Below, one piece after another: positions 1,774 through 53,716 of a DNA stretch of 54,454 bases (the first letter of the stretch is position 1; the number at the start of each line of letters is the position of its first letter). Both the position numbers and the translations under genes were made by a program. The stretch comes from a virus (Duplodnaviria; Caudoviricetes): IMG/VR virus record IMGVR_UViG_3300036668_000246, positions 1 to 54,454 of that record. One strand, written 5' to 3'. A model generated the notes under the pieces. The model had not been told where the DNA came from. It searched no databases and saw nothing but the letters and a program-made list of their open reading frames with translations.

Positions 1774-3606
1774 GTGGTTCAGACAAATGCAAACTTTAGC
1801 TCACGCCCGCAATACAGAATAGAACTCTTCACCGAAGCTTACGCGGTGTCTGGCGGCACTAGAATTGATGTCTCTGCCAATCTAGTAAAGTGGCAAACCG
1901 TAAATAATAGCCCAAACAGTACTGGAACTCCTCGCTCGTACTCTGTGCCCAATGGTAGGGTAAACAGCACTAGTGGCACCTTGGTACCGTCGGGCGGGGA
2001 CAGCAATCTAAGCTTCGACTTCAACTATGCTGCAGGTCAAAGCTTTACCATATATAGCGGATTCAGCAGGTACATACCTTCCGCAAATGGCAGCACTACT
2101 GTTTCTATTTCCGCGAGTCACAGCTTGCTGGGCTCAGCTACTGCAACTGTAAGTGTAGCCCAAGTTGTTACTGTAGTTAATAGAACTATCTCTTTTAATG
2201 GTAACGGCGGAGACACCCCGAGCTCTCAAACCGTGAGTGAAGGCAGTACAATATCTCTGCCGTCATCCTCACGATCCGGTTACACTTTTGACTACTGGAT
2301 TATAGGCGGGTCAGCATACTATGCTAGCCAAAACTATACTGTCAACAGTGACGTAACTGCGACCGCTAGCTGGACTGCCAACACTCCTGCTCCTAGTTTC
2401 AGTGACGGCCTGGACTTTCCTTACAGTATGCGCGTCGGGACTTACTATTATGAGCCGTTTACCGCCAATAATACCACTAACTATCAGCTGATCCAAACCG
2501 TCTCTGGGTTAACTATATATAATGCAAATAGCACCAGTGGATTTATAGCTGGTACTGTCTCCGCATCTCCCGGAGGGTACACATTCATTGTTAGAGCTAA
2601 TGGTCCTGGCGGGTCTACTGACACTTCAAGAACCGTATACATCAGCCCCGCCCTTCCACAGTGGACGGACACCTCTGTAACGAGTAGCGGGAGATTAGGA
2701 GCTTACTATAGTTCAAGCTTTTCTGCCACATACGCCACTTCTTGGGTAATCAGTGGGGTACCTAGCGGGCTAACTACTTCTGGGACGTCCTCTTCTACGG
2801 TGACAATATCAGGGACGCCTACAAGTGCTGGAACTTACACCTTTAATGCAACGCCTCGAAATTCAGACAACGAGGCAGCTTCTACTGAGTACTTTACAAT
2901 AACGATCACCCCTAGACTTCCTGTCTGGTCCGACACATCTTTAACAACTACCGCCCGCGTTGGTGTCACGTATAGCAGTACCATTTCTGCAAATTATGTA
3001 CACAATTGGAGTGTTGTAAGCCTAGAGGGTGTGGGGTTATTTTTTAACGAACAAACAAACCAGACTGCTCTCAGTACGTCGACACTTTCAGGAACTCCCA
3101 CAAGTTTTGGTAACTTATCCTTTAGCCTAACTCCCAGGAATTCCGCCAATGAGGCAACAACAACGGAAAATTACTCAATAACAATATATGATGCCTCAGT
3201 TGTTTGGTCTGATCAAGTCCTAGCTTCCAGTGTTGTAGTGCAAGATGAAGCCTACTCCGATCAGGTATCAGTTGCAGCAGGCCCAGTTTCTATTACTTAC
3301 TCTGAGACCCCTGGATTCCCGCTACCACCTGGTCTGTTTGTTAACTCGACTACTGGTACTGTCACCGGGTCAGTTTCAACTCCGGGAACTTACTCATTTA
3401 AAATACGTGCCACAAACGGTAGTTCAGAGTCTATCGATACCAGTCTACTAAGCCTATCTGTTGAAGCGGCTGGAGGCTATGTAAAGGTCTGGAATGGAAC
3501 CGTTTGGGTCGACGGGACGGTAAACGTTAGGACTGCTGGCGGCTGGGTTGAAGGTACTGCTCAAGTCAGATCCGCGAGCAGCTGGGTGACCAGCTTCACT
3601 AGCTAG
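1774..3606 (+). CDS. Ser/Thr-rich adhesin-like or tail-associated protein with an InlB B-repeat-like domain and several Ig-like repeats
   Basis: RTISFNGNGG...RSGYTFDYW...VTATASW resembles the Listeria-Bacteroides (Flg_new) repeat; repeated P-x-W-x-D...ISGTPT-x-G-x-Y-x-F and LPPGL...TGTVTG Ig-like units; GAGG upstream of the start. Confidence 0.7.
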   Translation: MVQTNANFSSRPQYRIELFTEAYAVSGGTRIDVSANLVKWQTVNNSPNSTGTPRSYSVPNGRVNSTSGTLVPSGGDSNLSFDFNYAAGQSFTIYSGFSRYIPSANGSTTVSISASHSLLGSATATVSVAQVVTVVNRTISFNGNGGDTPSSQTVSEGSTISLPSSSRSGYTFDYWIIGGSAYYASQNYTVNSDVTATASWTANTPAPSFSDGLDFPYSMRVGTYYYEPFTANNTTNYQLIQTVSGLTIYNANSTSGFIAGTVSASPGGYTFIVRANGPGGSTDTSRTVYISPALPQWTDTSVTSSGRLGAYYSSSFSATYATSWVISGVPSGLTTSGTSSSTVTISGTPTSAGTYTFNATPRNSDNEAASTEYFTITITPRLPVWSDTSLTTTARVGVTYSSTISANYVHNWSVVSLEGVGLFFNEQTNQTALSTSTLSGTPTSFGNLSFSLTPRNSANEATTTENYSITIYDASVVWSDQVLASSVVVQDEAYSDQVSVAAGPVSITYSETPGFPLPPGLFVNSTTGTVTGSVSTPGTYSFKIRATNGSSESIDTSLLSLSVEAAGGYVKVWNGTVWVDGTVNVRTAGGWVEGTAQVRSASSWVTSFTS

Positions 3607-29711: not shown

Positions 29712-30421
29712 TTACTGCCCTATTGGGGAGTCAAGTACGCTGCCAAATGGCATCGCGCTATCTCCATTAAAATCAGTCGGTGCTACATAAGATTTTGTCT
29801 CAAATGACTCTGCCTCATAGTCGTAGTCGCCATTAGAGTTTGCAGCTCTAGACGACGATGGTGACTTAATACCCCAGTTGTATGGAACTCCATACATAAC
29901 GCCATATATGTGCTCTCTGGCTCTTGTCATCATTTCAGCAGATTCGGGGCTAGCATAGCGAAGATCCTCCTCGAAGAAGAAATGCAAGACATCACACATG
30001 TCTGATGCATCCAACTCTCCCAAGTTGATTTTATTTACCATTGCTTTTCCATGTACGTAGGGCCAGAGGTCTACCGCCCAGCTTATTAGGCCTCTGGCTG
30101 CTGATTTGGGCGGTCTGAGTACTGTCCTACTAGCCAAGCGACAATCTCGCTTAGAGTTTCAACATGTACAATTTTTTCCTTGTGATGAATTAACGTATTG
30201 AATCGTTTGAAGCTCTCGTCAACTAATATGTTTCCGAAAAAATCAGTAATCACTTGAGCAGATGTTCCACTATCTTCGCTTGATGATTTTGCAATAAGTT
30301 CTAATAGAACCGACCCCTGGATATGCCTTACGCAGGTAAATTCTTCTTCGTGTAGTTTAAATGTAACGGGCTCACGAACGGTTAATTCTTTGCCAGCACC
30401 AAAATCTTTGAATCTTTCCAT
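29712..30421 (-). CDS. Tail assembly chaperone, frameshifted long form (about 236 aa, gpGT-like)
   Basis: The 29712-30137 ORF is in the -1 frame relative to the upstream ORF and overlaps it at C CCA AAT. Confidence 0.8.
30086..30421 (-). CDS. Tail assembly chaperone, short form (111 aa, gpG-like)
   Basis: Position upstream of the tape measure gene; start revised to ATG 30421 after AGGAAAG. Confidence 0.8.
   Translation of the reverse strand: MERFKDFGAGKELTVREPVTFKLHEEEFTCVRHIQGSVLLELIAKSSSEDSGTSAQVITDFFGNILVDESFKRFNTLIHHKEKIVHVETLSEIVAWLVGQYSDRPNQQPEA
30104..30110 (-). other. -1 programmed frameshift slippery heptamer CCCAAAT
   Basis: X XXY YYZ in the correct phase (CGC CCA AAT), five codons before the stop. 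Confidence 0.8.
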
Positions 30422-30478
30422 TATATGTCTTTCCTGTATCGTCAATACCTACATAAATACGCAGATACATCAATTGTA

Positions 30479-37239: not shown

Positions 37240-40200
37240 TTAGGTAAGGAGTCGGAGCAGCTTGCTCATCTCAGATTGAACTTCACCCTGAGAGTACACA
37301 TCTGCTCCAGATATGTAGGATTTTAGACTTTGCGTAGCAATATCTGCATCCTTTTTACCGATTTTTGCCTCGACACGAGTAATCATCTGATCGATGAGGT
37401 CCTTGAGTCCAGACGGTAGATCGCTAAACTTTAATTTCTCTGCATCCTTGCCAAAAGGGAGAGGTAGGTTGGAAATCACAGTGCCTAGCTCTGCGGCGGT
37501 TGCGCGAACATTCTCTAGAGCTTCTGGATTTAAAGCTTTTGAGTCAATTCGGTCAATCATCCCAAGAAGGTCGTCACTCGCACCTGCGGAAGCGGCATAG
37601 TCTCCAGCAAAATCAAGATTCTCAGCTTCCTCTGCCTTCTTTAGAGCTTTTGATAGACCTGCAACACCTAGGTTTTGCTTTAGGCGAGCCAGAACCGTTC
37701 GGTACTTGCCCTTTGCGTCGCGTGGCTGATTTACACCGGAAACGTATTTAGGCTTGCCATCCTCGTCTAGACCGTTGGGGTCTGTTTTACCAGACTTGAC
37801 ATCCTTAGCTGCTTTAATCTCTTCTTCGGTTTGCTTGTCGGCCTCGGACTTAGAGTCTCGTAGTTTTTTTAGGTCAGCGTCAGAGATTTCGTCGTCATCA
37901 GTTTTTGCAAATTCTGAGTAAGCACTAGCTGTAATGCTGGCACGCATGGACGCTACCCTCTGGGCAGCTGCCATGGACTCAGCGTTTTTCCATTGCATCG
38001 GGATCAGAGCGGACTTCTTTAGAGCTCTAGCACGCTTCGCAATGTGTCTGCGCACTGCAGCCCGATCGGTTGCCTTAGCCCTTCCGTAGGCTTGGATTGC
38101 ATTTTTAAGGTCTTCTTCATCCCTAATTGGGTAAGCACCATCTGGCATTGCAATCCCTTTATCCGCTAATTCCAGCCGCTCCTCGGGGGATATCTTTGCC
38201 AGCTCTGCTACTGCCGCTGCGGTTAGAGTCTTCTCTCGAAGGATCATGGCGCTAGCAGTGATTGCTTGTAGATTTGCCTCGCGGAGAGACTTTTTTGCTT
38301 CCCTGACACGGATTTTTAGGTCTGGAGCAGTAGCAGCTAACTTTCCAAAGGTGTGAGCCTTATAAGATAAAGCCTGTACCGCTTCACTCTTTAATACGGC
38401 CATATGGCTCGCTCCAGCAGCGACTAACGCAAGCATCTTTCCGCCTGCTATCATCGCACGAGCAGTTGGGAATCCAGGCACGTTTACCTGGCAAACGGCA
38501 ACTAGCTCTAATGAGCCTCCAATTGGACGCCAGTCTCCGGAGGGGGCAGATGCGCGAAGTGCACGAACCTGCATCTCATCTGCATCTGGACGCAAACAGC
38601 CTGCAACCCATATACCAAACTGATCTTCGCCAGCGTGAACATCCGCAATGGCAGAAGCAGTGTCATCGTAATGCTTTGCTGCATCGGCAGCACTGGCATT
38701 CAGTGGAGCGTGCCCACCAGCAAGAGTTAACTGACCAACAGTGGCATCAGTTCCCTCTGCAGTGTGCACTACTCCAGTGTTGAAGTATGCGTACTTACTA
38801 CGTGAGCGAGGAGGCTTAGTTGAACGTGGTAGCCCAATGTGGCTAACGTGCCACGCAGCAATATGGCCATAGATGCGGCCATCCTTGTCTACGCTTAGAG
38901 GCGTGGGTTTGTCAAGTTTTTGGTCTTCAAACCAGGATGCAGGCGGTGCCATCGGGATCTCGGATTCTAGATACCCGGAAGCCATAATCGGCTCAAGGTC
39001 GCAAAGACCATCGATGCACTCTTCGTAGATACCGTCTTCTGGAGTCACGTATTCTTCCTGATCCCCCAAGTTAATAATTGCAATCGTGCATTCCTGGAAT
39101 GCAGGCTTAGCTACAATTGTAGCAGCCATAACACGGGCTTTGTTTATAGTGAGCTTGTCCTTGCCCATCTCTTCGCCAGCTTCATCCTCGGATCCTTCTT
39201 TCAGAGACGCCTTTGGGTTCTTCTCTTCTTTAGCTTCAAATTTATCAAGATCGACGGACACCCCACGCAAAAAACCATTCTCGACTAGTCTTTGAGCTTC
39301 GCGACCATACGGTCCAGTGTCGAATACACCAGTAGCATTCCCTAGGCCGCCTTTGATGCGCTCCACATTGTCAATACGACCAACAACTACAGAACCATCG
39401 TGACCGTTACCAGTTTTAATCTGCCACAGAAGAGGTAGAGGTAGGTCACGTAGTGTTATTGCCCCACTCACAAACTTGCGCCCATCGCCGGACTCGAGCT
39501 CTTCCGGCACCAACATAGGGATCATAAACCCAGCGCCTTTATCAGTACGAGCAGATGCAATTAATGCAACTTTTTCGCGGGCATCTGCTGCCTTAGCGAG
39601 TAGCTCGGATCTTCTAAACATTGCGGAGTCAAACTCTGCTTCTGAAGAGAATAAGCTGTACTCTGAGCTCATATTCTTGTCATTGCCTGGATTTAGCTTG
39701 CTACCTGTATAAACACCAGTTACTTCCTTGTGACGCAGCTGGCAGTAGCCCTTTGCGCGTGGGCCCATGTACTTAGAGAGATTACGGACACAGCGGGTCC
39801 AGTCCCCAGGAGTGCCCCATCGGATTTTTGCTGCACCCTTGCCTTTGGTCCAGTATCGACGAAGACCTTCCGCGTTTCCACGATTACGGTCAGCACCGCC
39901 AGCTGCAAGCAGCGGCTCTACTACCTTTTCCCAGAAGATGGAGAAATTGTATGCTGAAGCCTGCAAAGGCGACGCCTCGTCTGCCTGCTCTAAGACATCA
40001 TTTAAGACTTCTTTATCATCAAGTTCTACTACCGGTGGAGGCGTAGAGGACTTAAGGTCACTGAGGACTTGATTGTCCCGGTTCCACTTTCCATTCAAGC
40101 GTACATAAGTTACTGGATCGGTGGATGTCTTACTTTCGGGGACAATTGCAACAACATCCATCACGGCTTCTAAATCGTCAGGAGATAGCAGTGCCAAATA

Positions 40201-41520
40201 TTTAACAACTATGTCCGACTCACTCGGGGAATTTATAGCATCAGATGCTTTCTCACCAGCGGCATTTAGAGGCTTAAATGTGCTCCGCTGCTTTGCCGCC
40301 CATTTAGGGAAATCAGACATAAGCTCATTAATATCTTTAGCACTAAGAGGAGGAAGCGTCCCTGGCAAATGAGCCTTTGGCTGGTTAATTGGGGTCCTAG
40401 GCTCTCCAATTATCCCAGACATGTCTAAGGGTCCTTCATATGTGGGAACTCTGCGTGGACCAGTTACTGGGGCATCTGCCTCTGCACGCGTAAACTTGGC
40501 ATCAACGCTTACAGTTTTGCCATTATCTAATTTAACGTCAACCAATCCAGTGGCAGAGTCTACATTTTGTATGACACCAGAGCCACGCTCGCTGTCTCCC
40601 GCTATTACAACACGTCCTCCAGCTTTTGAGAACAAGCCCCCCGCATCTCTAACCTGATTTGAAGCTTTCTCTGAGCGCTCTTCAGGCGTGTAGTTGCCAT
40701 CTCGATTTGTAGGTGCTGCAGCGCTAATAATTGGTACACCCGCGGCACTTAGGACTTGGTCTATCATGTCAAAGTCTTCGTCAGCTAGCGCACCCCCCAT
40801 GAGTTGGGTCTCTTCTGGGTCAATCTCATGCAGCATCACTGGCGAGTAAGGGCGGTCCTGTAGGAAAGCAGAAATAATAACAGCAGAAGACGGGTCAATC
40901 ATCACGTAATCTTTTTTACACGTATCTGAGCTGTTGTCTAAGGCCTTATCGTATGAATATAGGTCTGCATCAACGTGACCCATGTTGTCCCAGTTGCAAT
41001 CGTCCCAAACATAGACTGACCCGTCGATGTCTATCTTGTACAGACGATCTATGCCAGAGTTATCCATGCGAATCCTTGCCATAAACTCTGGACCAACAAA
41101 GGGATCTAACTCGTGAGCTAGCTTAAAAGCATTTAGATCTGGCTCATAGTATGGTTCGACTTCTGAAATCTCGTAGGCGCCGGCTGACATGGCCTTCTTG
41201 TTCTCACGTTCAACTAAAGTAGATGCCCACCGTTGAGCAGCGTCCCCACCCCAAAGTGCCCAAGCGATACGGCCGTTAGACGGGAATCCATCCTCTCCGC
41301 GCTCGTAGCCTTTTGCCTTCTTGTCAACTTCGTGACGAGGGAAATATTTAGCAATGTGTCGAATCTTCTCTAGGCCAATTTGACCGCCAGAAGCAAGAGT
41401 GCGGGCAGTGTTCAACCCAACAGGTGTGCCACCACGTCCGGTTTCTTTGCGCCAGCTTAGAGCTTTTTTAGCCTCATTTTGGACTCCACCTGGAATAGTG
41501 TACATTCTGGACTCTGCCAT
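37240..41520 (-). CDS. Capsid maturation protease multidomain fusion (1426 aa)
   Basis: ESGDGRKF...LPLPLLWQ...GHDGSVVVGRID...GVSVDLD...ATIV..PAF protease core; GRIYGHIAAW and PSGDWR domain; additional N- and C-terminal modules; directly upstream of the capsid gene. Confidence 0.82.
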   Translation of the reverse strand: MAESRMYTIPGGVQNEAKKALSWRKETGRGGTPVGLNTARTLASGGQIGLEKIRHIAKYFPRHEVDKKAKGYERGEDGFPSNGRIAWALWGGDAAQRWASTLVERENKKAMSAGAYEISEVEPYYEPDLNAFKLAHELDPFVGPEFMARIRMDNSGIDRLYKIDIDGSVYVWDDCNWDNMGHVDADLYSYDKALDNSSDTCKKDYVMIDPSSAVIISAFLQDRPYSPVMLHEIDPEETQLMGGALADEDFDMIDQVLSAAGVPIISAAAPTNRDGNYTPEERSEKASNQVRDAGGLFSKAGGRVVIAGDSERGSGVIQNVDSATGLVDVKLDNGKTVSVDAKFTRAEADAPVTGPRRVPTYEGPLDMSGIIGEPRTPINQPKAHLPGTLPPLSAKDINELMSDFPKWAAKQRSTFKPLNAAGEKASDAINSPSESDIVVKYLALLSPDDLEAVMDVVAIVPESKTSTDPVTYVRLNGKWNRDNQVLSDLKSSTPPPVVELDDKEVLNDVLEQADEASPLQASAYNFSIFWEKVVEPLLAAGGADRNRGNAEGLRRYWTKGKGAAKIRWGTPGDWTRCVRNLSKYMGPRAKGYCQLRHKEVTGVYTGSKLNPGNDKNMSSEYSLFSSEAEFDSAMFRRSELLAKAADAREKVALIASARTDKGAGFMIPMLVPEELESGDGRKFVSGAITLRDLPLPLLWQIKTGNGHDGSVVVGRIDNVERIKGGLGNATGVFDTGPYGREAQRLVENGFLRGVSVDLDKFEAKEEKNPKASLKEGSEDEAGEEMGKDKLTINKARVMAATIVAKPAFQECTIAIINLGDQEEYVTPEDGIYEECIDGLCDLEPIMASGYLESEIPMAPPASWFEDQKLDKPTPLSVDKDGRIYGHIAAWHVSHIGLPRSTKPPRSRSKYAYFNTGVVHTAEGTDATVGQLTLAGGHAPLNASAADAAKHYDDTASAIADVHAGEDQFGIWVAGCLRPDADEMQVRALRASAPSGDWRPIGGSLELVAVCQVNVPGFPTARAMIAGGKMLALVAAGASHMAVLKSEAVQALSYKAHTFGKLAATAPDLKIRVREAKKSLREANLQAITASAMILREKTLTAAAVAELAKISPEERLELADKGIAMPDGAYPIRDEEDLKNAIQAYGRAKATDRAAVRRHIAKRARALKKSALIPMQWKNAESMAAAQRVASMRASITASAYSEFAKTDDDEISDADLKKLRDSKSEADKQTEEEIKAAKDVKSGKTDPNGLDEDGKPKYVSGVNQPRDAKGKYRTVLARLKQNLGVAGLSKALKKAEEAENLDFAGDYAASAGASDDLLGMIDRIDSKALNPEALENVRATAAELGTVISNLPLPFGKDAEKLKFSDLPSGLKDLIDQMITRVEAKIGKKDADIATQSLKSYISGADVYSQGEVQSEMSKLLRLLT

Positions 41521-41922: not shown

Positions 41923-42123
41923 TTATCGTTCTGTATCTTCATCTAAAATGCCGGTAAGAGTCCTGTAGTAGAGCTCGTCAGTCGCTTGAGGCAACTCAAA
42001 AACTAAACTATAAAGCTCAGATGTTGTCAGTGTCTCTAAGTCTACTACAATTTCCTGCGCGCCGTCCTCTGCATCAATGCGGATGGATATTTTAGTCTCA
42101 TGAAGGCGTTTTATCTCTGCCAT
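41923..42123 (-). CDS. Small acidic hypothetical protein
   Basis: TGATG overlap with the metallopeptidase ORF; GGAAGG upstream. Confidence 0.6.
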   Translation of the reverse strand: MAEIKRLHETKISIRIDAEDGAQEIVVDLETLTTSELYSLVFELPQATDELYYRTLTGILDEDTER

Positions 42124-43526
42124 CAGTTACCGCCTTCCTTTTCTTGAGATTTTAACAGACCCTTAGATCTTAGCAGGTCCATAAACTCAGGGGTTGCGTT
42201 GCCAGTAACTACGTACTTGGTTAAAGCTTCTGCAAAGTTCTCTTGAACATTTTTTTCCCCGTAATTGCTTACTTTTTGACCTCTAACTCCATATAACTTG
42301 TAATCTTCAGCTAATGCCACGTCTCCATCATCTTTTGGACCACGGCCCCAGTTGTCAAAGGCTATAACGTGAGCTAGTTCATGAATAGATGTACCTGTTG
42401 ACTTTTCGCCTAGGGTTTTAGGCTCTATGGAGTGCCAACCGGTCTCAGTTCTGGCTCTATTTTCCCAAGCTTTAGCCAGTCTAGAAGGTAACATATGACC
42501 GCCACCCGAAGGGAATGCAAAACCAAGAGTATTGGCCGAACTACTATACATGCTCCCCATTGTAGCTGCCAAAACTGAACTAGGCGCCGTAATTGACATG
42601 CTCATGGGTTTAGGAATATCAAGTTTTTCTTTAATTGTATTAAATGCATTTGCAACGTATTTTATATCGTCGTTAGTACCGACCGCGCCTCTCCCAGCGG
42701 GGGACGCATATACTTTAATTGTATTGCCGTCAGGATCAGATATTTCGCGATATGCACTCCGCTTACCGTCTGTCCCAGAGAGCACTCTTCTGTACGCATT
42801 GGATAGTACAACTTTTCTAGCGTAATCAATCTGCGCGGCGGGAGCTGTGTCCTCGTATCGTTCTATTGCGTTAGATAGTCTTACATTTTCGAAAGTTGAA
42901 AGCATTGCCCCCTTATCTGAGATTTTCCAATCTCCCTTTAGGCTGGCTATAAATCCTTCATCTAAGTCCGGAACATTTCTGTATATCTCGTTTTTGTAGC
43001 TAGCTAGGAGCCTATCCTCTTCCCGAGCTAAGTTGACATAAGGCTGAGCTAAATTACCTTTTGAGAACTGCCTCCTGTGCAAGGGAGCCATAAGCTTGGC
43101 TACGTCTTCAGCCTCCAACACTCCATCTTCTCTTATCTGAGGTGCCCTGTATTGAGAATTAATCCCTAAGGTCGACATATCAGAATACTGCTCAAGAAGA
43201 TATTGCAACTGAGCTATGTATTGCTCTTTAAGCTCAACCGACGGTTCTTCCCCGTATCTACGCCTCAGGCGACCAATTGTTGCTACATTCTGTAGAACAA
43301 AGTCTCCCCCTGAACCCTTGCTTACAGGTAAGGAATTAAATACGTCACTTATAAATGAGTCGTAATTCTGAGATTGTAGCTCAGTGAGGGATGTTTCAGG
43401 TGCGGTCTCGTCTGGCTCGATTGGGTCGTCCCAAGAAATGGCAGATGTGTCATAATTACGACCAGACCTTGAAGCCTTAGTTTGCTCAGACGAGGCAGTA
43501 TCAGGGGCTGCCTCAGCCCCTCTTAT
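42123..43526 (-). CDS. Zn-metallopeptidase-containing -1 frame extension (467 codons) of the upstream head-region protein
   Basis: Frame open from 43526 to the stop at 42123; IHELAH (42369-42383) followed by SNYG....QENFAE; no ATG or GTG in the first 106 codons. Confidence 0.75.
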   Translation of the reverse strand: MRGAEAAPDTASSEQTKASRSGRNYDTSAISWDDPIEPDETAPETSLTELQSQNYDSFISDVFNSLPVSKGSGGDFVLQNVATIGRLRRRYGEEPSVELKEQYIAQLQYLLEQYSDMSTLGINSQYRAPQIREDGVLEAEDVAKLMAPLHRRQFSKGNLAQPYVNLAREEDRLLASYKNEIYRNVPDLDEGFIASLKGDWKISDKGAMLSTFENVRLSNAIERYEDTAPAAQIDYARKVVLSNAYRRVLSGTDGKRSAYREISDPDGNTIKVYASPAGRGAVGTNDDIKYVANAFNTIKEKLDIPKPMSMSITAPSSVLAATMGSMYSSSANTLGFAFPSGGGHMLPSRLAKAWENRARTETGWHSIEPKTLGEKSTGTSIHELAHVIAFDNWGRGPKDDGDVALAEDYKLYGVRGQKVSNYGEKNVQENFAEALTKYVVTGNATPEFMDLLRSKGLLKSQEKEGGN

Positions 43527-43532
43527 TTTGGG
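43503..43532 (-). other. Putative -1 programmed frameshift signal: CCCAAAA plus downstream hairpin
   Basis: GGC CCA AAA TAA G then AGGGGCTG-AGG-CAGCCCCT (8-bp stem). Confidence 0.78.
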
Positions 43533-46399
43533 CCGCGGCCCTCGCCTTTGTCTAGAATTTCTGTCTGGAGGTTGCCGTCAATATCAAGGTATTGGATTGC
43601 AACTCCAGGCTCTCCACCGTCGGTAGCCGGGACTTCTTTAACTTGTTGCACGGTGCCAATGTACCCGCCATCGGGGTCGTACAATGGGTCGCCAGATTGC
43701 ATATCTTCGGCTAGCTTAGTCCCGCCGGAGGGGGCAGATGCGTCATCGGCTGACTCTCCATCCTCGCCTAAGTACGGTGCATTGGCATCTCCGCCTGCAA
43801 AATCAGGGTCCTCAGGGTCGAAGTCAGGATCTTGATCCCTATTCTTGGCGTATTCTTCGAAGTCGATACCTAGCTCGTCTGCTCTGCGGCGTAGCTTCTC
43901 GTCTAACCTAACCCACTTCGCGTAAGGAGTTGGAGCATCGTCCGTATGTAGCATATTCCTAGTCTGAAGGTTGTCGACTACCTCCCCGTCGCCGAACCTG
44001 ACTGCAGCCGTGTCCTTGTAGCCGCCGTTTTTACCAGAAACTGCATTTAGTCTAACCACTGTACCGATTACTAAATCACCCTGGTTGTTGATAAACCGTA
44101 CTTGGTCTCCAGGCGCAACTATGGTGACACCATCTTCAGATACAAACGGAATTTGATCCTTATTTCTTAGATCAAATGATTCTGATTGTAAGAACCTCTT
44201 CAAATTCATAGGTAGCGTCTGTACTACTTTTTCAAGTGCAGTGCCCTTGTAGCGGCTGCCTAGCTCTGTTTTAAGAGTGCTTAGAAGTTTATCGATCGAT
44301 TCAGGGGAGTTAGGTAGCCTGCCCAAGAGCTGCACAAGGCGCTCTTTAACTAGGGCAAAGTCCTTTGAGTCAACGGCTTCATAGAATGATGCAACAAAGC
44401 TACGGCTCACATTGCCGAACTGGTTCCTGTAATTCTTTTTGTTTCCAGTATCTGACTTGTTTAGCTTGCGTGCTCTACCTGTGAGGAACTTAGAAATATT
44501 CTCATCTTCGGTCACCAGCCTCCAGTTGTTCACATCTTTAGTCTTGCGAAGGTACTTCAACCTCTGAGCCATATCTTTGTCTGGTCCAAAGTAGCTGCGA
44601 AGCTCTTTTTCAACGGGGACGCCTTTAGCGTCCACACCCTTAAGTCCGGGAGTTGTTCTGCCTAGCAGTAAGTCACGGGTCTTTGTTAGCCCGCTGGTCT
44701 TACCGTAAAGTCCAGCAAAGCTGTCCTTGTAGTCAGAATTGTAGAAGTCATAGACAACTTCTCCACTATCAGGGTCTGTGACCGTGTAGCGTTCCATGAA
44801 CTGGTTTCCAATTGTGCGCTGAACTCCAACTTCATAGTTGTAGGTTTTGCCATCAGTATCAGTGAATGACCCTCTCTCTACAACAATAGTTCCGTCTTCC
44901 TTAATTTTGGCATTAGGGTTTTCTTCAAGAAGAGCGTCAATAATAGAGTTAGGGTCTTCGACTTGGCGAGGGTTGCCCTTGTCGTTCTCCACCATAATTA
45001 GCTTACCGTTCTGGTCTACCAGATTCTTAATTTTCTTGTTGCGGAGCTCTTCGTCAGTCTTTTCAGATGGGGCAATCGGATTACCGTCATCTGCACGGTC
45101 TATTTTGTTAACCTCTTCAGACTTAGGTGCCTTCTTAGGGACTACCTTTTTAGGGGTAGTCACTTTTGGAGGTTCCGGTGTCGTGGGGTCAGCAGGATTT
45201 TCAGGCTTAGTTGGCTTAGCAGTTGGCTTAGCTGGTTTAGTTGGTTTAGCTGGTGTCAGTTCACTGCCCTCTACTACTGAGTAGTCTCTGCTAGGGACTA
45301 GAGGGACCCTAGTCCTTTCCCCCTTAGAGTCCTTGATCTCCATCCAAGACTGTCCACCTTGAGAGACATCTATACGGAGGTTCTCGACCAGGTACTCATT
45401 ACCTTTGCCGTCAGTTATAACATCACCCTTGTTTAGGGCGGATCCTTTAGCAAGTTTAATCTTAGAGTACGCAGCCTGGACTTTTATCAGCTTACCCAGG
45501 TCAGGTGCAGGAGCATCTTGTTCAAATGCAACTAAATACGCTTCATTGGCGGAGTTTCGAACTTTGACAGGATTAAATATATCCAAGAGCCTAGCTAGCT
45601 CTGAATCCTTCTCGTCCTGAGACATCCCATCATACTTAGAGTCGGTCTCGCTCTCTTCAATATCTCCAGGGCCGCCTCCACTTTTACCAAAAATTCTCTC
45701 AGCGAGCTCAATGTACTGTTCCTTTTGAGCTGGATCATTAGAGTCTATTTTTTCAAGTTCAGCCATTAGTTCTAGGGGTGTCTTGACATCAACAGTTTCT
45801 TTAGGATCTTCAACAAGTTTGTTTACTTCTTCACCTTTTAGGGCCTGCTCTGCTAGTGCCGGCGGGAGCTTAGCCAGTGGCTCTTGATCCCTCTCTGAGC
45901 GGAAATCTTTGTCCTCATCGGTGGTTAGGCCGCTGGTAGCTAATTCAATGTCCAATTCATCTGCAGGCTGGACGTTTAGACTTGCCAGATCTTGAGGTTG
46001 CTCGGCTACTGACTTTGGCAGAGTGTGGGCTAGATCTGGATCTACGCCTCTTGCCTTCAGGAAATCTTTGTCAATCTTTATCTTAGAGCTGACTTCTGCG
46101 TTTTTAGGAGTTACCTCTACTACGCTATTCTCTGGGATTCCGTACTCTTCATAGCCCTTGCCGACTAGCATACGAATGTTGTTTACTTCACTCTTGTCGG
46201 TTGCAGTTCCACCGATTGCTCTACCCTTTAGCTTTACTATTCCTCTACCATCACCAATGCTAAAAGCTGCCAATAGTGCGGCCCCTGTGACTACCCAACG
46301 GCCTTTTTTATCCCTAGGTTGGCCCTTAACACGTGCTTTACGTGCAGCGGTGGAGTTACCGCCTGCTGCGATTAGGGCGTCAAGAGTTAATTTGGACAT
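43523..46399 (-). CDS. Large head-region multidomain protein (958 aa)
   Basis: N-terminal ALIAAGG and QPRDKKGRWV motifs; several SH3/KOW-like segments (KGDVI, PGDQVRF, SGDPLY); Pro/Lys linker. Confidence 0.75.
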   Translation of the reverse strand: MSKLTLDALIAAGGNSTAARKARVKGQPRDKKGRWVVTGAALLAAFSIGDGRGIVKLKGRAIGGTATDKSEVNNIRMLVGKGYEEYGIPENSVVEVTPKNAEVSSKIKIDKDFLKARGVDPDLAHTLPKSVAEQPQDLASLNVQPADELDIELATSGLTTDEDKDFRSERDQEPLAKLPPALAEQALKGEEVNKLVEDPKETVDVKTPLELMAELEKIDSNDPAQKEQYIELAERIFGKSGGGPGDIEESETDSKYDGMSQDEKDSELARLLDIFNPVKVRNSANEAYLVAFEQDAPAPDLGKLIKVQAAYSKIKLAKGSALNKGDVITDGKGNEYLVENLRIDVSQGGQSWMEIKDSKGERTRVPLVPSRDYSVVEGSELTPAKPTKPAKPTAKPTKPENPADPTTPEPPKVTTPKKVVPKKAPKSEEVNKIDRADDGNPIAPSEKTDEELRNKKIKNLVDQNGKLIMVENDKGNPRQVEDPNSIIDALLEENPNAKIKEDGTIVVERGSFTDTDGKTYNYEVGVQRTIGNQFMERYTVTDPDSGEVVYDFYNSDYKDSFAGLYGKTSGLTKTRDLLLGRTTPGLKGVDAKGVPVEKELRSYFGPDKDMAQRLKYLRKTKDVNNWRLVTEDENISKFLTGRARKLNKSDTGNKKNYRNQFGNVSRSFVASFYEAVDSKDFALVKERLVQLLGRLPNSPESIDKLLSTLKTELGSRYKGTALEKVVQTLPMNLKRFLQSESFDLRNKDQIPFVSEDGVTIVAPGDQVRFINNQGDLVIGTVVRLNAVSGKNGGYKDTAAVRFGDGEVVDNLQTRNMLHTDDAPTPYAKWVRLDEKLRRRADELGIDFEEYAKNRDQDPDFDPEDPDFAGGDANAPYLGEDGESADDASAPSGGTKLAEDMQSGDPLYDPDGGYIGTVQQVKEVPATDGGEPGVAIQYLDIDGNLQTEILDKGEGRGPK

Positions 46400-46436
46400 A
46401 GAGGTAATCCTTTATATAGTAATAGAACTAGTTAAA

Positions 46437-46447
46437 ATTTTACCCTA
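46437..46447 (-). promoter_or_regulatory. Conserved promoter-like motif TAGGGTAAAAT (copy 3)
   Basis: Matches copies 1 and 2; 37 nt upstream of the ATG at 46399. Confidence 0.6.
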
Positions 46448-46467
46448 TTTGTAAGTTAGTTAGTAGT

Positions 46468-47328
46468 TCAAGACTCTTTACGAGGCATAGAAGCTAGTCT
46501 ACCTAACTGCAGTAGGGTAGTCTCACCGAGTGATCCCGAAGCAATCAGAACCTTTATACGGACAGCTGAGTGCAATACCGAAACATCATCAGCTGAATTT
46601 GAATAAGTTTGCGTAATTGCAAATCTCTGAGAATCATCTAACTCGGGTGCGCCAGATATCCACAATGCAGAGGCGTAAATAGGTGCCTCTACCCCTGGGT
46701 GGCCTTCGGGCAGTAAGTCCGAGTAATCTGACAAGTCATCTAAATCTTCTGACTCTCCAGAAGTCGCATACTCTGCAAAGGTAAATACTTCCCACAGTAT
46801 TGCGGATCTCAGTGCGTCATTGTCGCCAAGGTAGCTGTACTTGGTGCAGGCTTTTCTAGCTACAGCATAGGCGCTCTCAAGAGAGACTGCCCTGCTAGCA
46901 CCAAACTCGGAATTTATGCTATACACAACCTCTGTTATCGACGCAGACGAAGGTACGCAGTTAGGGACTTTTTTACCCTTCTTGTCCTTCATGCCTACTT
47001 GTACGTAACCCTTCCAGCACGGGTCATCAGACTCTTTCTCTAAAGCTGCTGCAGTAATGCCATCTGCGGACTGGTCGATTGGCACACAGTTAGGGACTTC
47101 CTTGCCATCTTTACCTTTTTTTGTGCCAAGTTGTACGTAACCCTTCCAGCACGGGTCATCAGACTCTTTCTCTAAGGACGCGGCTTCATGAGCTGAATCC
47201 TTCATTAACTCGCCGTCTGGCATGTAATGGTAACCCTCAGGGGGTTCTTTCTTGCTGTCATCTATAATCTCTTCAGGTGCAGCATATCCGCCAGCAGCTC
47301 TAATAACGTTCTTTATGTAGTCTGACAT
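46468..47328 (-). CDS. Hypothetical head-region protein with duplicated CWKGY...VPNCVP module
   Basis: Two copies of LEKESDDPCWKGYVQ.G.K...GK.VPNCVP; GYHYMPDGELM motif. Confidence 0.7.
   Translation of the reverse strand: MSDYIKNVIRAAGGYAAPEEIIDDSKKEPPEGYHYMPDGELMKDSAHEAASLEKESDDPCWKGYVQLGTKKGKDGKEVPNCVPIDQSADGITAAALEKESDDPCWKGYVQVGMKDKKGKKVPNCVPSSASITEVVYSINSEFGASRAVSLESAYAVARKACTKYSYLGDNDALRSAILWEVFTFAEYATSGESEDLDDLSDYSDLLPEGHPGVEAPIYASALWISGAPELDDSQRFAITQTYSNSADDVSVLHSAVRIKVLIASGSLGETTLLQLGRLASMPRKES
46999..47175. repeat. 45-bp exact direct repeat, period 132 bp
   Basis: ttgtacgtaacccttccagcacgggtcatcagactctttctctaa at 46999-47043 and 47131-47175. Confidence 0.9.
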
Positions 47329-47787
47329 TTAGCGAACTCCTAGGAATGATTTGATCTGCCAGTTGAATGTTTTATGTGTATCAATACGGCCTGCAAGAAA
47401 ATCCATCAGGCCTTGCTCGTTGCAATCCTGTGCTTTTTTGAAGGTGTCTAATAGTGAGTGCATTAACTCATCGTTTATTCTTTTAGCAGATTGCAATAAG
47501 AAGGCAGGAGATGACCCATCTAGGCGATCCTCTTTTATACGAGACATCTCTGCATAATCAGTCAAAAAATATGGGGCAGGAAATCCGGCTTTAAGGATAT
47601 TCTCACCCAACGGGTCAATCGAACTATCCACGTCTTTATACAGGGTTTTAAAGAACTTGTGGTATTCCCCGAAGTCCGGTCCTAGGACGTTCCAGTGATA
47701 TCCATGAAAAATAAACTTGGCTGCCACTGTATCTGCTAGCAGGTGCGCTAGCTTTCTCGCTAGTTCTGTGTTCTGATCTGAATGCAT
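47329..47787 (-). CDS. dps: Dps family ferritin-like protein
   Basis: LLAD, HGYHWNVLGPDFGEYHKFF..LY, IDPLGENI, HK...WQIKS; ferroxidase ligands H, H, D, E present. Confidence 0.9.
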   Translation of the reverse strand: MHSDQNTELARKLAHLLADTVAAKFIFHGYHWNVLGPDFGEYHKFFKTLYKDVDSSIDPLGENILKAGFPAPYFLTDYAEMSRIKEDRLDGSSPAFLLQSAKRINDELMHSLLDTFKKAQDCNEQGLMDFLAGRIDTHKTFNWQIKSFLGVR

Positions 47788-50224: not shown

Positions 50225-53200
50225 CTACCTGACCCTAAATACGCGACCAACATTGCCAGTATTTGGTCTAGCGACACCCATTTTACGATCTGCGAGGCTT
50301 TTTGCACGTAATTTACCACCAGAAAAGCCCGGCGGGGGTTTAATTAGCAGCGCGGTCATGGCGTGAACCATTGCATCGATGCGGTCAGGGGATTTACCTT
50401 CTCCTGGGATCCAAGAGTACATTTGAGATTCTAGTTCTGGGAGGTAATTTACGTGGTGGACACGTCCTTGCTCGTATGCAAGAAGAATTGGTTCTGCTCT
50501 TAGCTGTTTTCCGTACTTAGAGTGGACCTCGAGGACTTTGACGCTGGGGTCAATAGAGTTAATTGCGTTTCGTACGAGTGCGCCACCTTGATTAACTTCG
50601 GCAACAACGGGACAACCCCACTTGCGAGCCATTTCCACAACTTTACGGGCCCAGGTATCTGGGGAACCATGAATTGAAGCGTCCTCAAGAACCCAAGCAT
50701 GACGCTTGTATAAATCGTGCTCTGCAGTCGATGCGCAGACAACAATACCGCACTCGTCGCGGGGGTTCTCAGCGACCGAAGGGTCAACGCCGATAACACG
50801 TAACGGAGTAGACGCAGGGTAATTAGTGTGTCTAGCTGCTTCAACTAGCTCTTCGTTCCACATTGCGCCTTCTAGGTCGTCAAGCATCTCTCCATAGAGC
50901 TCTTGTCGAGCTAGAGATGTGCCTTCGTAGACGCCCATAATAGTCTCAAGATATGCGCCGGAGAGGTTTCCAGCGTTATCCATTGTGGAACCTTTTGTGA
51001 CAACTACCTTTGCGGCAGTCGCCCTATCTGTGCGAGATTCTTCAATAAGTTTGTAGAGAAGCGGAGTACGCTTAGGGGTGGTGGTCGCCAATATCTGTGG
51101 GTTCTTACCAAGACGAGTACCGACTCGTAAGTTGTCAAAAGCAGTCATGCCCGCAGCGTCTGGGGTCTGCCGCCAAGCGGCAACTTCGTCGCCCCATGCG
51201 TGACTATTGGACGTCGGGATCAGACCTTCACCTGCAAGATAGAGGTGACTTGCAGAGTCAACGGTTATACATCTCATGAATTTTGGAGTGGTTGGGTCGA
51301 TAGACACAATAGAGTGCTGAGTAGACTGATACTTCCACTCATACTTAGCTTTAGCTAACTTACGTGGATTACGCACGAGGGGGAAGGTGGAGTTAACTTG
51401 GACGTACCAAGCCTCTTTACTATAGACTCCGGCCCGCTCCCTAGGTTTCCGATAGTAGACCTTAGGTACCAGACCTAAACTCCTAGCAAGTTCTATGTAT
51501 CCATCGATTAGTACCTTATTTGTGTTATAGAACCTGAAAGCACCATTTGGCTCAACGCCGCCGTCAGAGTCAGTCAGTCCCTGTAGTAGAGAGAGGCGAT
51601 CTTCTGCTGACGCCCTTAAGTAGATCTCGGGAACATGCTTGTTGTTGTACAGACCCAACTCCCTCCAAGGAGCTATCAAGTCAGCAGCCCAAACGTGATC
51701 TTTATTCATGTCTCTACTGGCTAAGCCTGAACGCCCTAACTCCTCTAAAAGCCATGATTTGTCATCTGTGTGGGTAGCAATGTAACTAGGAGCAGCGCTC
51801 GCGCCATCTCCTAGAACTAGTCCAAGCACCCAAGGGTCGATTGGTAGAGGCTCAGTGGATACTACATACTCTACCGCTTTTGTTGCAGGGATGTACAAGC
51901 GTCTTTTGGTATTTGCACGTAGCTGGTTAGTGTCTTTTACTTGATGATTAGTGGACTCTCTGCCAAACCGGTCAGTTGCCCATGTCTCAGGGATAACCCC
52001 ATCAAAGTGAGTGGTAACGTAGCGAAGGTCGGTGTTTGTGAGAACCTTCCACCTGTGCTTGCCGTCTGCGTCAATGTGCGTTCCGTTTGAGAAGTTCAAC
52101 CTGTAGCTGTCTAGGGCCAGCTCAATCTCGTGGACTGCCGTCACATTGCAGGGGCTACCTAACTCATCGAATACAACATCTCCTACCTGTAGGTCTCCCA
52201 TAGTTGACCATCCAGTAGGTGTAGGCACAGGGGTAGCAATGTCCAGCCTAAATTGCGGTCCACGCAAACCATCAGGTTCGTCGGCAGTGAAGAGGGTTGC
52301 AGTGTTACCATTCGGCCAAGTCAGACGTCTTTTAGACGGCTCGTAGTGTGGCTTCTCTGAAGGAGGGGAGATGTTTATGATTCCGGAATTGTGAGTTTTT
52401 ATGTAGCTCTCAGTAATTAGGAAGGTGTGATCAGAGGAATCTACAGCTATACATCTAACGGGTACGCTCTCTGTGGGAGAGACGGACTTCACGTACCTCC
52501 ACTTTTCTTCTGACCTATATTTCTTCAGACTGGCTGCTTTTCGAGTCAAAGAAGCCACAGGTAGTGACGTTGTGAAAGTTATACGATATGCGTCAGACGC
52601 AGTGTAGGTTTTGCCATTTGGTGCGGCTACCTGCCTACCACCGAGGCGAAATTTTACACCTCCGTGCTTTATCCCGAGCGTGGAAACTAATCTAGCGACA
52701 TCGTTAATAAGAGTTTTATTTGTATTGTCAAACTCTATCTGACCCCTCTTGGATACACTGCCATCCGAGTCTATAAGTCCCTGAAGGAGCGACATCCTCT
52801 GGTCGATACTTGAGTGAAAGTATGACTCTGGGATGTGTTTATTTTGTATAAGATTGTTTAACTTAAGAGCCCGATTAAGTCCATCCGTGACCCCAAAAGT
52901 ATAGATAGTCTTATTGTCGGTAGTAGTGTAACCTTCGGAGTCAATTCGAGCACGCACTTCCGGTTGGTCGTCAGTGTGACTGGTGATAGTGGCAGACTTT
53001 GCCGTACCGTCCCCAAGCCACATCCCGAGGGTATATGGACCGATTGGCAGAGAAGCATCCTGCCCTACAACAGCAGCTATGCGGATTCCATGATTAGAGT
53101 TGAGGTAGCCATTTAAAGTTTTCTGGGTATTGTGCAGCTCTTCGGTAGTCCTAACGCCTTGGTACGTGTTTGGCATTCTCTGCTCGTAACTACGCTCTAC

Positions 53201-53716
53201 ATGAGTAGAAGTCAGCCATTTGTGGTTAGCATCTGCAACCACTTCAGTACCTGATATGTCTAACTTGTAGCAAGGTCGATTGTTTAGTACTGAAAAAACG
53301 TGAGTTACTTTACATGGGTTGCCGTCGCCGCCTATGACGATGTCGCCCACTTTTACGTCTGCCATAGACACAAAACCAGTAGGAGTAGCTATTTTAGTGT
53401 CTAGCGCTAAAGCTTCTCCCTCGACGATTACGTCTCGAACGTCAGCAGCAGTACGAGCAACAAGTGCAAACCGACGTTGACCTTCAGTTGTGTACTTTGC
53501 CGTCTCGCGAACCCACTCGGAGGCCATTCTGGTTTTTCCAAATCCACGCCCGGCAAGAACCAACCAAACATTCCAGTCGTCGCTAGGGGGAAGCTGCTCG
53601 GGGCGCGCCCAGACATTCCAGTCCCAGAGTAGGGCGTCTGGATCAATCCCCTCTAGTGCAGCAGCCTGCTCCTCTGGAGGGAGCATAGCAATAAGTTCCA
53701 TAATACTTTTACTCAT
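50225..53716 (-). CDS. terL: Terminase large subunit precursor with two inteins (473 aa after splicing)
   Basis: Walker A AGRGFGKT, LRGPQF|SHAWGDE (Walker B), TTTP, VIGVDPS, AEVNQGG, SPDRIDA. Confidence 0.95.
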   Translation of the reverse strand: MSKSIMELIAMLPPEEQAAALEGIDPDALLWDWNVWARPEQLPPSDDWNVWLVLAGRGFGKTRMASEWVRETAKYTTEGQRRFALVARTAADVRDVIVEGEALALDTKIATPTGFVSMADVKVGDIVIGGDGNPCKVTHVFSVLNNRPCYKLDISGTEVVADANHKWLTSTHVERSYEQRMPNTYQGVRTTEELHNTQKTLNGYLNSNHGIRIAAVVGQDASLPIGPYTLGMWLGDGTAKSATITSHTDDQPEVRARIDSEGYTTTDNKTIYTFGVTDGLNRALKLNNLIQNKHIPESYFHSSIDQRMSLLQGLIDSDGSVSKRGQIEFDNTNKTLINDVARLVSTLGIKHGGVKFRLGGRQVAAPNGKTYTASDAYRITFTTSLPVASLTRKAASLKKYRSEEKWRYVKSVSPTESVPVRCIAVDSSDHTFLITESYIKTHNSGIINISPPSEKPHYEPSKRRLTWPNGNTATLFTADEPDGLRGPQFRLDIATPVPTPTGWSTMGDLQVGDVVFDELGSPCNVTAVHEIELALDSYRLNFSNGTHIDADGKHRWKVLTNTDLRYVTTHFDGVIPETWATDRFGRESTNHQVKDTNQLRANTKRRLYIPATKAVEYVVSTEPLPIDPWVLGLVLGDGASAAPSYIATHTDDKSWLLEELGRSGLASRDMNKDHVWAADLIAPWRELGLYNNKHVPEIYLRASAEDRLSLLQGLTDSDGGVEPNGAFRFYNTNKVLIDGYIELARSLGLVPKVYYRKPRERAGVYSKEAWYVQVNSTFPLVRNPRKLAKAKYEWKYQSTQHSIVSIDPTTPKFMRCITVDSASHLYLAGEGLIPTSNSHAWGDEVAAWRQTPDAAGMTAFDNLRVGTRLGKNPQILATTTPKRTPLLYKLIEESRTDRATAAKVVVTKGSTMDNAGNLSGAYLETIMGVYEGTSLARQELYGEMLDDLEGAMWNEELVEAARHTNYPASTPLRVIGVDPSVAENPRDECGIVVCASTAEHDLYKRHAWVLEDASIHGSPDTWARKVVEMARKWGCPVVAEVNQGGALVRNAINSIDPSVKVLEVHSKYGKQLRAEPILLAYEQGRVHHVNYLPELESQMYSWIPGEGKSPDRIDAMVHAMTALLIKPPPGFSGGKLRAKSLADRKMGVARPNTGNVGRVFRVR
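51206..52249 (-). mobile_element. Class 3 intein with LAGLIDADG endonuclease (intein 2, 348 aa, aa 490-837)
   Basis: Starts RLDIATPVPTPTGW, block B DADGKHRW, LAGLIDADG helices LGLVLGDG and LQGLTDSDG, block F MRCITV, ends IPTSN|S. Confidence 0.9.
52388..53413 (-). mobile_element. Class 3 intein with LAGLIDADG endonuclease (intein 1, 342 aa, aa 102-443)
   Basis: Starts ALALDTKIATPTG, block B ADANHKW, LGMWLGDG and LQGLIDSDG, block F VRCIAV, ends IKTHN|S. Confidence 0.92.

Follow-up and report, generated by a model that had tools for sequence, protein, structure and literature searches.

We analyzed a stretch of viral DNA of 54,454 nt (Duplodnaviria; Caudoviricetes; IMG/VR record IMGVR_UViG_3300036668_000246, positions 1 to 54,454; hereafter the window) with respect to the 3′ end of a 958-aa open reading frame (ORF), here called the carrier. 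Comparative evidence strongly supports a programmed -1 ribosomal frameshift at this end, to which we assign a probability of about 0.8 and which would append a zincin-like peptidase module encoded in the -1 frame. The initial annotation, made from the letters of the window alone, had proposed such recoding, and this proposal is now supported by the signal itself, its recurrence in nine lineages, the contrast with in-frame fusions, a start-less coding frame and the lack of indels at the junction.

In the proposed mechanism, most ribosomes would read GGC CCA AAA, terminate at the following TAA and release the 958-aa carrier. A hairpin 4-5 nt downstream would stall some ribosomes over the C_CCA_AAA heptamer, Pro- and Lys-tRNAs would re-pair one base back on CCC AAA, and the slipped ribosomes would decode AUA AGA GGG... 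and so on for 467 further codons. The predicted product is a 1425-aa fusion of carrier, linker and zincin peptidase with the junction peptide ...GRGPK-IRGAEAAPDTASSEQTK. Because the stop adjoins the heptamer, the short form would end exactly at the domain boundary. The site may serve as a conserved "socket", to which relatives would attach an exonuclease together with the peptidase, the peptidase together with C-terminal domains, or an unrelated 265-aa module; in some lineages the fusion appears to have been fixed in frame.

Proposed recoding signal and its comparative support

The slippery heptamer at the end of the carrier (Table 1) lies in the frame required for tandem tRNA re-pairing, as in canonical -1 signals. 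Both the 958-aa ORF with CCCAAAA directly before its TAA and the hairpin 4 nt after the heptamer were found where the initial annotation had placed them. Among 17632 codon positions in the window's 39 ORFs of at least 150 codons, 38 held an in-frame X_XXY_YYZ heptamer (Y = A or T), and the one at the carrier end was the only one located at most two codons from a stop. The chance that Gly-Pro-Lys is written as GGC CCA AAA is 0.049 (4.9%) by window codon usage. The 45 nt 3′ of the heptamer fold at -17.5 kcal/mol, a value that only 0.95% of 10882 same-strand windows equal or better. On the sense strand the hairpin is followed by GAUACUGCC and not by a T-run, and an intrinsic (rho-independent) terminator of this strand was rejected for that reason. 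We also considered GAGGG, located 6 nt ahead of the heptamer, as a Shine-Dalgarno-like stimulator on the upstream side but dropped it, as it is not conserved in lineage L010. No Rfam family was found at the site.

Table 1. Features of the carrier locus in the window and junctions of the nine frameshift-type lineages
Feature or lineage	Position	Strand	Site and stem	Remarks
Carrier ORF P0001, 958 aa, 0 frame	46399..43523	-	ends GGC CCA AAA TAA	protein tail ...GEGRGPK, then stop
Slippery heptamer	43532-43526	-	C_CCA_AAA (X_XXY_YYZ)	0 frame GG[C CCA AAA]; Pro957 in P site, Lys958 in A site
0-frame stop	43525-43523	-	TAA	immediately 3′ of heptamer
Hairpin	43521-43503	-	AGGGGCUG-AGG-CAGCCCCU	8 bp (7 without terminal A-U); 4-5 nt after heptamer (spacer UAAG)
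-1 extension P0002, 469 sense codons	42123..43532	-		stop at 42125-42123; homologues P0003-P0013
Low-complexity linker, predicted disordered	43395..43525	-		extension residues ~3-46; pLDDT <50 for residues 1-46
Conserved motif YDTSAISWD	43428..43454	-		~27 residues past shift, upstream of any start codon
TTG, first conventional start possible in -1 frame	43206..43208	-		codon 109; no Shine-Dalgarno-like motif upstream
Helical N-terminal region of module	42753..43388	-		extension residues 49-260; AF2 model mbc54715fa5d0
Zincin-like metallopeptidase domain	42144..42752	-		extension residues ~261-463; structure and profile matches
HELAH, predicted HExxH zinc-binding/catalytic motif	42369..42383	-		H384, E385, H388; invariant in 12/12 sequences of family A1
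ENFAE, helix with presumed third zinc ligand	42228..42242	-		E431...E435; invariant in A1
Window (= L001/L003)			C_CCA_AAA TAA; stem GGGGCUG/CAGCCCC	-1 ORF about 466-469 codons
L004/L010			C_CCA_AAA TAG; stem GGGGCC/GGCCCC	-1 ORF 839 codons
L006			C_CCA_AAA TAA; long two-tier hairpin	-1 ORF 975 codons
L024			C_CCA_AAA TAG	-1 ORF 711 codons
L002			A_AAA_AAA GAC TAG; stem GCCCCU/AGGGGC	-1 ORF 261 codons
L015-17			A_AAA_AAA GTT TAG; stem GCCCCU/AGGGGC	-1 ORF 715 codons
L026			C_CCA_AAA GCG TAG; two-tier hairpin	-1 ORF 1092 codons
L027			C_CCA_AAA GCG TAG; two-tier hairpin	-1 ORF 1094 codons
L028			C_CCA_AAA GCG TAG; two-tier hairpin	-1 ORF 619 codons

Related loci were selected for the similarity of their proteins to the carrier, without regard to the signal, and every junction was then read by script. 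All nine lineages with a split arrangement combined an in-frame heptamer with a stop zero or one codon later, a hairpin at a distance of 5-7 nt on the 3′ side of the heptamer and 261-1094 open codons in the -1 frame. The heptamer was C_CCA_AAA in seven lineages and A_AAA_AAA in the other two (L002 and L015-17). The +1 frame was shut within 16 codons in each of the eight lineages examined (L006 was outside that scan), and the 45 nt that follow the site ranked within the lowest 0.06-6.2% of the same-strand windows of their own locus in all six lineages tested. Stem sequences differed among lineages, the 5′ arm being rich in G in some of them and in C in others, and the two-tier hairpins of L026, L027 and L028 had dG values of -23.6 to -28.0 kcal/mol. 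Comparison of 15 stem pairs in the PKA subgroup revealed one compensatory GC<->AU exchange and two wobble changes, against one broken cell. Alignment of homologous loci had been put forward by the initial annotation as a check of the signal; heptamer, stop and hairpin were kept while stem sequences changed, and the swapped C-terminal domains that it looked for were also observed, with modules differing between lineages.

A profile of the carrier, searched against 1.84 billion proteins, matched 351 representatives (E<=0.001). The C-terminal census covered 150 listed representatives, 61 of which reached the C-terminal end of the profile; the remaining 89 were fragments or matched its N-terminal part only. 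Most of those reaching the end (46 of 61) stopped at PK, PKx or PKKx, five stopped at LELKKA/LKKA or IKK, and ten continued in frame by 13-722 residues.

In two loci, L018 (1234 aa) and L021 (1188 aa), a single frame encoded both the carrier and the peptidase module, with the joint ...GE[ED]RGPK.... Their Gly-Pro-Lys codons were the non-slippery GGA CCT AAG or GGC CCT AAG, no stop was present at the joint, and the next 48 nt folded at only -3.5 and -5.6 kcal/mol. Both in-frame RGPK fusions thus lack slippery codons, stop and hairpin, and the absence of exactly these elements supports the fusion protein as a real product. As judged from these sequences, the amino acids of the joint are kept for the protein, and slippery codons, stop and hairpin accompany a change of frame only. 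The initial annotation had named contiguous-ORF homologues devoid of a slippery site as a possible refutation; such homologues do exist in these two loci, but they stand beside nine frameshift-type lineages and do not refute recoding. A second in-frame form was also detected, in which the last barrel of the carrier is replaced by a module of ~470 aa with a HELWH motif (P0028-31; L005/L011, L008/L009 and L012). One copy of this HELWH form (L007, ~3240-3270) lacks one A in an A-run, which splits the ORF (ETGEL followed by a stop, compared with ETGEIIEK...). This split has no frameshift signal and probably reflects an assembly error or a copy that is dead.

The -1 frame of the window is open as far as the initial annotation had stated: its 467 codons, counted after the two slipped codons, are the same as the 469 sense codons given here, and the apparent gap of 314 nt before TTG 43208 was confirmed. 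It had further reported no ATG or GTG early in this frame; neither of these, nor TTG, occurs before codon 109, and the first ATG is codon 119. A Shine-Dalgarno-like motif was present in 22 of 30 window genes and absent before TTG 43208. The start-less part is conserved as protein. Homologues P0007, P0009 and P0010 align with extension residues 24-108, the L006 extension aligns from residue 19 (hhalign probability 99.2%), and homologous extensions also lie in the -1 frame of L010, L006, L024 and L015. In the 9 codons before the first ATG of L010, L026 and L027, we counted 5, 3 and 4 synonymous changes, respectively, against 0 nonsynonymous ones. Start-less codons, homologue coverage and synonymous change together point to a long -1 ORF that encodes real protein and has no start of its own. 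Independent initiation at TTG 43208 with no upstream peptide, the other refutation named in advance, was not borne out, as a Shine-Dalgarno motif is missing and the upstream peptide is conserved.

Within this part, YDTSAISWD aligns with GKKYDLSGIQWN of P0007/P0009 and with GRQFDLSGLRQ of L006. More generally, a motif of the form [FY]D[LT]S..I or GIDFQS was found 20-30 residues past the joint in the window and in L006, L015, L018, L021, L010, L026 and L027. A processing or targeting role for the YDTSAISWD motif is a guess.

The junction was also examined in other data, all 24 listed sequencing runs being DNA contigs. An independent IMG/VR assembly, 99% identical to the window (L001), has the same junction, and contigs of runs X3, X5 and X9 crossed positions 43000-44000 with substitutions only and zero indels. 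The support at 43526 that the initial annotation had asked to be checked was therefore obtained from an independent assembly and from contigs of three other metagenome runs. A variant in X9, C43516 to U in the 5′ arm of the hairpin, keeps a U-G pair with G43508, though it replaces Ala by Val in the -1 frame. Run X13 had no contig over 43544-43679.

Points against frameshifting and alternative explanations

Several observations weigh against a programmed frameshift or the role suggested for its products. Shuffle z-scores of single sequences were unexceptional (-0.93 for a 63-nt stretch of the window, -0.16 for L010); since the window hairpin alone is statistically unremarkable, the comparative data carry the weight. 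AAA in the A site, as here in place of AAG, is not the slipperiest option in Escherichia coli. The recoding, and that slippage takes place at all, is deduced from DNA and its comparison. Run contigs omit rare variants and could have missed a minority population with an indel. With regard to a virion location of the carrier, searches of BFVD and the PDB with its fold returned generic small barrels and helical repeats only and no functional match. In the exonuclease-bearing lineages L010 and L026, an ATG occurs 28-40 codons past the site, and gene callers begin there (P0009 and P0047). In addition, P0010 and P0048 have an extra Met-led N-terminal region of 230-300 aa. These two types of sequence suggest that some modules may also be made independently.

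The last two observations also belong to the alternative that survives best, although it is unlikely: carrier and module would be two separate genes, the module beginning at TTG 43208 or at an upstream non-canonical codon, and heptamer and hairpin would be incidental or otherwise regulatory. Gene callers do split the locus, starting P0003 from an internal Met and P0004 from 41 codons upstream of the TTG equivalent. However, the 108 start-less codons in the window, the missing Shine-Dalgarno motif at TTG 43208, and the conserved peptide with purely synonymous change upstream of candidate starts all speak for translation from the carrier. Separate genes would also leave unexplained that the offset is always -1, with +1 closed in the eight lineages checked, and that heptamer, stop and hairpin occur in nine of nine split lineages and in neither in-frame fusion.

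Transcriptional slippage is quite improbable as a general explanation. An RNA polymerase that stutters and adds one A would put the two ORFs in frame and give the same protein as a -1 shift, and slippage on long A-runs occurs in bacteria and phages. For the two lineages with seven As (L002 and L015-17), it is a fair alternative, and to that extent it counts against ribosomal frameshifting there. The window and six other lineages, however, have only four As; moreover, every heptamer occupies the frame needed for tRNA slippage, and in all lineages the hairpin lies at the distance of a ribosomal stimulator (5-7 nt).

We give slightly less credence still to an artefact or a decayed gene, that is, a one-base assembly error or recent mutation that split a continuous carrier-peptidase gene of the L018/L021 kind. 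In-frame fusions do exist, and the loss of one base from the A-run of L007 shows that indels occur in such data, but that indel sits at a random place with no signal. Nine lineages with 26-99% protein identity to their query share one codon pair as breakpoint, have one common offset and carry the stop and the hairpin there as well, 46 of 61 diverse representatives have their C-terminus at PK (PK, PKx or PKKx), and the independent assembly and the three additional runs agree at the junction. Least credible of all is that the hairpin is an intrinsic terminator of the opposite (plus) strand and the rest coincidence: a consensus scan does score 43503-43521 followed by CTTATTTTGG as terminator-like, but the T-run simply mirrors the slippery A-run on the complementary strand, 5 such sites occur in the region against 4.8 expected, the long family-matched ORFs from 10491 onward are all on the minus strand, and the start-less conserved -1 ORF would be left unexplained. 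The plus-strand score at 43503-43530 is probably a by-product of the frameshift signal.

Carrier, appended modules and known systems

The carrier consists of a conserved N-terminal domain, a Pro/Thr/Lys-rich linker and a conserved C-terminal half of ~530 aa. The latter was modelled as two small SH3/Tudor/KOW-like barrels plus helices (AF2 residues 430-958, pLDDT 80.4), with the last barrel similar to domain I of EF-P/eIF5A (Z 8.0-8.7 over 61-66 residues). The carrier matched no Pfam family (Pfam-A, E<=0.01) and no PHROG (E<=0.001), and residues 430-958 had no usable match in the ESM Atlas. Its N-terminal 200-450 residues (GFNDGANKGFWR.QPRD..GQWIEMGA...) are found as well at the start of many giant proteins (2000-4300 aa; among P0085-P0192), and polyvalent-type phage proteins may have this domain in common as a head-piece for targeting or packaging. 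Only these residues are shared with the giants, and it is through them that the carrier is tied to giant polyvalent-type proteins.

An AF2 model of the window module (mbc54715fa5d0, 12 sequences) had a pLDDT of 78.9 and comprised a disordered linker, a helical region and a zincin domain. The helical region gave generic helical-bundle matches only. By VIA-align, the best structural matches of the module were the catalytic domain of lethal factor (1yqy_A; Z 10.0, 195 aligned residues, rmsd 6.8) and the Pro-Pro endopeptidases PPEP-3 (9g0j_A; Z 9.6, 179 aligned, rmsd 4.1) and PPEP-2 (6fpc_A; Z 9.2, 157 aligned, rmsd 3.8), and YbeY-type zincins scored Z 7.6-8.6; Foldseek alone gave an E of about 0.07. 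A search of the A1 family profile against the PDB detected lethal factor at E 0.0027, with HExxH, YG and E-FAEA aligned. HELAH lies within helix 374-395 of the model and aligns to HEFGH of lethal factor, and ENFAE, with S422-x-Y424-G425 just upstream, aligns to YG...EFFAEAF. The HELAH and SxY...ExFAE motifs that the initial annotation had read in the -1 frame are thus present (H384-H388 and S422-x-Y424...E431-N-F-A-E435). On these models and profiles, the module is a zincin fold with HExxH...ExFAE, closest to lethal factor and Pro-Pro endopeptidases. It differs from these M34 zincins in that the sequence relation is marginal at this E-value, its helical region has no counterpart, and it belongs to a phage of environmental bacteria. 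Neither Pfam-A (E<=0.01) nor the PHROGs (E<=0.001) gave a match; we therefore describe the module as zincin-like with M34-like motifs and assign it to no named Pfam family.

The zincin module is present, or likely so, in eight of the nine extensions (that of L028 was not compared with the family), and one extension is unrelated. Additional domains vary. In L010 and L026 a DEDD exonuclease is located ahead of the peptidase (in L010, RNase_T PF00929 at 4.7e-12; phrog_192), and in L027 a further small domain is added. L006 and L024 have in common a C-terminal domain of ~250 aa, family unknown, added to the peptidase, and no Pfam match was found for the 975-aa L006 extension; in L015 another C-terminal region is added. 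The unrelated module is the 265-aa one of L002, whose hhalign probability against the peptidase family was 0.2%; it matches phrog_2563 (function unknown) and is also not similar to that of L015. Several unrelated enzyme domains on one polypeptide that vary among relatives, as found here, are the mark of polyvalent-type proteins. By eye, P0047 (~residues 400-560) and the C-termini of the L006 and L024 extensions have R...S-x-S...E-x-E-like or YRG motifs, similar to ADP-ribosyltransferases (ART). This ART-like reading is not claimed for the L006, L024 and P0047 domains; a PDB profile search of A5 and a phmmer search of P0046 were empty. DNA of further subfamilies was found neither in viral-contig scans with P0086 and P0067 nor in genome-contig scans with A3 and P0106.

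The position of the carrier between the portal and MuF-like genes, together with the analogy to polyvalent proteins, suggests that both forms may enter the capsid. The long form would be minor and virion-borne, setting the dose of effector, and the peptidase could free or mature the cargo by self-cleavage or could target host proteins. Since the peptidase is constant in eight of nine lineages and the other domains vary, a releasing or maturing role fits at least as well as an effector role. A more comprehensive picture is possible, although we lean somewhat against it as a whole: the carrier family (351 clusters) would have its socket at the last two codons, the cargo (zincin peptidase, DEDD exonuclease, ART-like or other) would be exchanged in a cassette-like manner, slip efficiency would fix the number of armed copies per capsid, and the FDL/IDF motif would be the cut point for cargo release. 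If true, the socket would be a translational counterpart of the polymorphic-toxin architecture, in which slip efficiency, and not gene copy number or promoter strength, sets the number of armed copies.

In bacteria, -1 frameshifts at an A-rich heptamer with a hairpin set the product ratio of IS3-family OrfAB transposases and of dnaX tau/gamma. The signal in the window is of the same type and would likewise give a fusion enzyme or alternative product; however, the proteins are unrelated, and the IS3 and dnaX signals lie inside overlapping ORFs, whereas that of the window lies at a domain boundary with a swappable module.

Phage -1 extensions described in PMC5009743 and PMC5221750 include T7/T3 10A/10B, the major head and tail proteins of Lactobacillus phage A2, and Ig-like extensions. 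These resemble the carrier site in having an end-of-gene heptamer in a virion-module gene, a nearby stop, a stem-loop and products that share the upstream protein. They are short or Ig-like decorations on capsid or tail subunits, whereas the window family would append 261-1094 codons of enzyme modules to a non-capsid carrier, and the module varies among relatives. The consulted portion of the review by Atkins et al. (PMC5009743) covers chaperone, capsid and Ig-like cases and has no mention of metallopeptidase, ADP-ribosyl, prohead or minor capsid. The lambda-type tail chaperone pair G/GT is also alike in its conserved -1 slip, its fixed ratio of short to long form and, in some phages, separate or fused genes (PMC10885494), but gene, product and presumed role all differ from those of the carrier site. 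A pair of this kind in the same phage, with a C_CCA_AAT heptamer and a -1 ORF, adds to the case for frameshifting at the carrier.

Polyvalent proteins, as presented by Iyer et al. 2017 (PMC5512222), have a zincin MPTase as their commonest hub domain, for which self-processing or action on host proteins has been proposed. Together with MuF-VIP2 fusions (PMC7302621), they resemble the window family as head-module proteins with swappable enzyme domains. They are single continuous ORFs, whereas the cargo of the window family would be joined by recoding; the word "frameshift" has 0 occurrences in the available text of PMC5512222. The PRFect study (PMC10885494) only raises the idea that split MuF/VIP2 genes might use frameshifting. 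A literature search for frameshifting with polyvalent proteins, MuF toxins, ejection proteins and minor capsid fusions found no description of the arrangement, with most subscription journals and supplements outside its scope.

In tailed phages, the known cases of frameshifting mainly concern tail chaperones and small capsid or tail decorations; here it would join a carrier to whole enzymes that change from phage to phage, and would connect recoding with how polyvalent or injected phage proteins work. A practical rule for annotation follows: genes located after a ...R-G/S-P-K stop should not be regarded as separate, and gene callers now truncate such modules. The family would also offer a natural system for studying how viruses control the copy number of a packaged enzyme, and its nine natural variants form a series in which slippage on C_CCA_AAA and A_AAA_AAA could be studied at hairpin energies of -13 to -30 kcal/mol.

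Phage and gene block

The window is an IMG/VR fragment with a CheckV completeness of 32%, and the metagenome contigs that hold this phage are of salt-lake origin. In searches of INPHARED phages, only the portal placed the virus near large actinophages: its identity was 68% with the portal of Actinomycetia phage DSL-LC01 and 57-63% with those of Microbacterium phages of 186-195 kb (Pumpernickel, 63%), and we therefore regard the virus as a large actinophage-like one. The gene set downstream of the portal in DSL-LC01 differs from that of the window. Carrier and module had no match among 50,697 deposited phage genomes (INPHARED; megablast of 42000-46500 and tblastn of P0001 and P0002).

Beyond 10491 and as far as the window extends, every long ORF with a family match is on the minus strand. 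The order on this strand is large terminase (TerL), portal, Dps/ferritin-like protein, a 286-aa protein and the carrier, followed by the -1 module, two small ORFs, a MuF-like protein of 1426 aa and the major head protein. The large terminase (53716..50225, minus strand; 1163 aa) has a LAGLIDADG/Hom_end (intein-like) insert at ~residues 295-450. The Dps/ferritin-like gene (47787..47329, minus strand; PF00210 at 1.9e-11; phrog_3636) is located between portal and carrier within the head-gene block, and occupies the same place, as 152-aa ORFs, in L001 and L002. The 1426-aa protein (41520..37240, minus strand) matches MuF-type PHROGs (phrog_859, 3.6e-93) over residues 663-1106 only; its long flanks have no assignment and may contain more cargo domains.

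Another frameshift of this phage is probable at 30445..29712 (minus strand). A 119-aa ORF with C_CCA_AAT at 30110-30104 lies immediately upstream of an 1108-aa gene of tape-measure size, and its -1 frame enters a 141-aa ORF (30137..29712). This pair has the pattern of tail-chaperone G/GT genes, with a CCCAAA-type slip site of the same type as that of the carrier.

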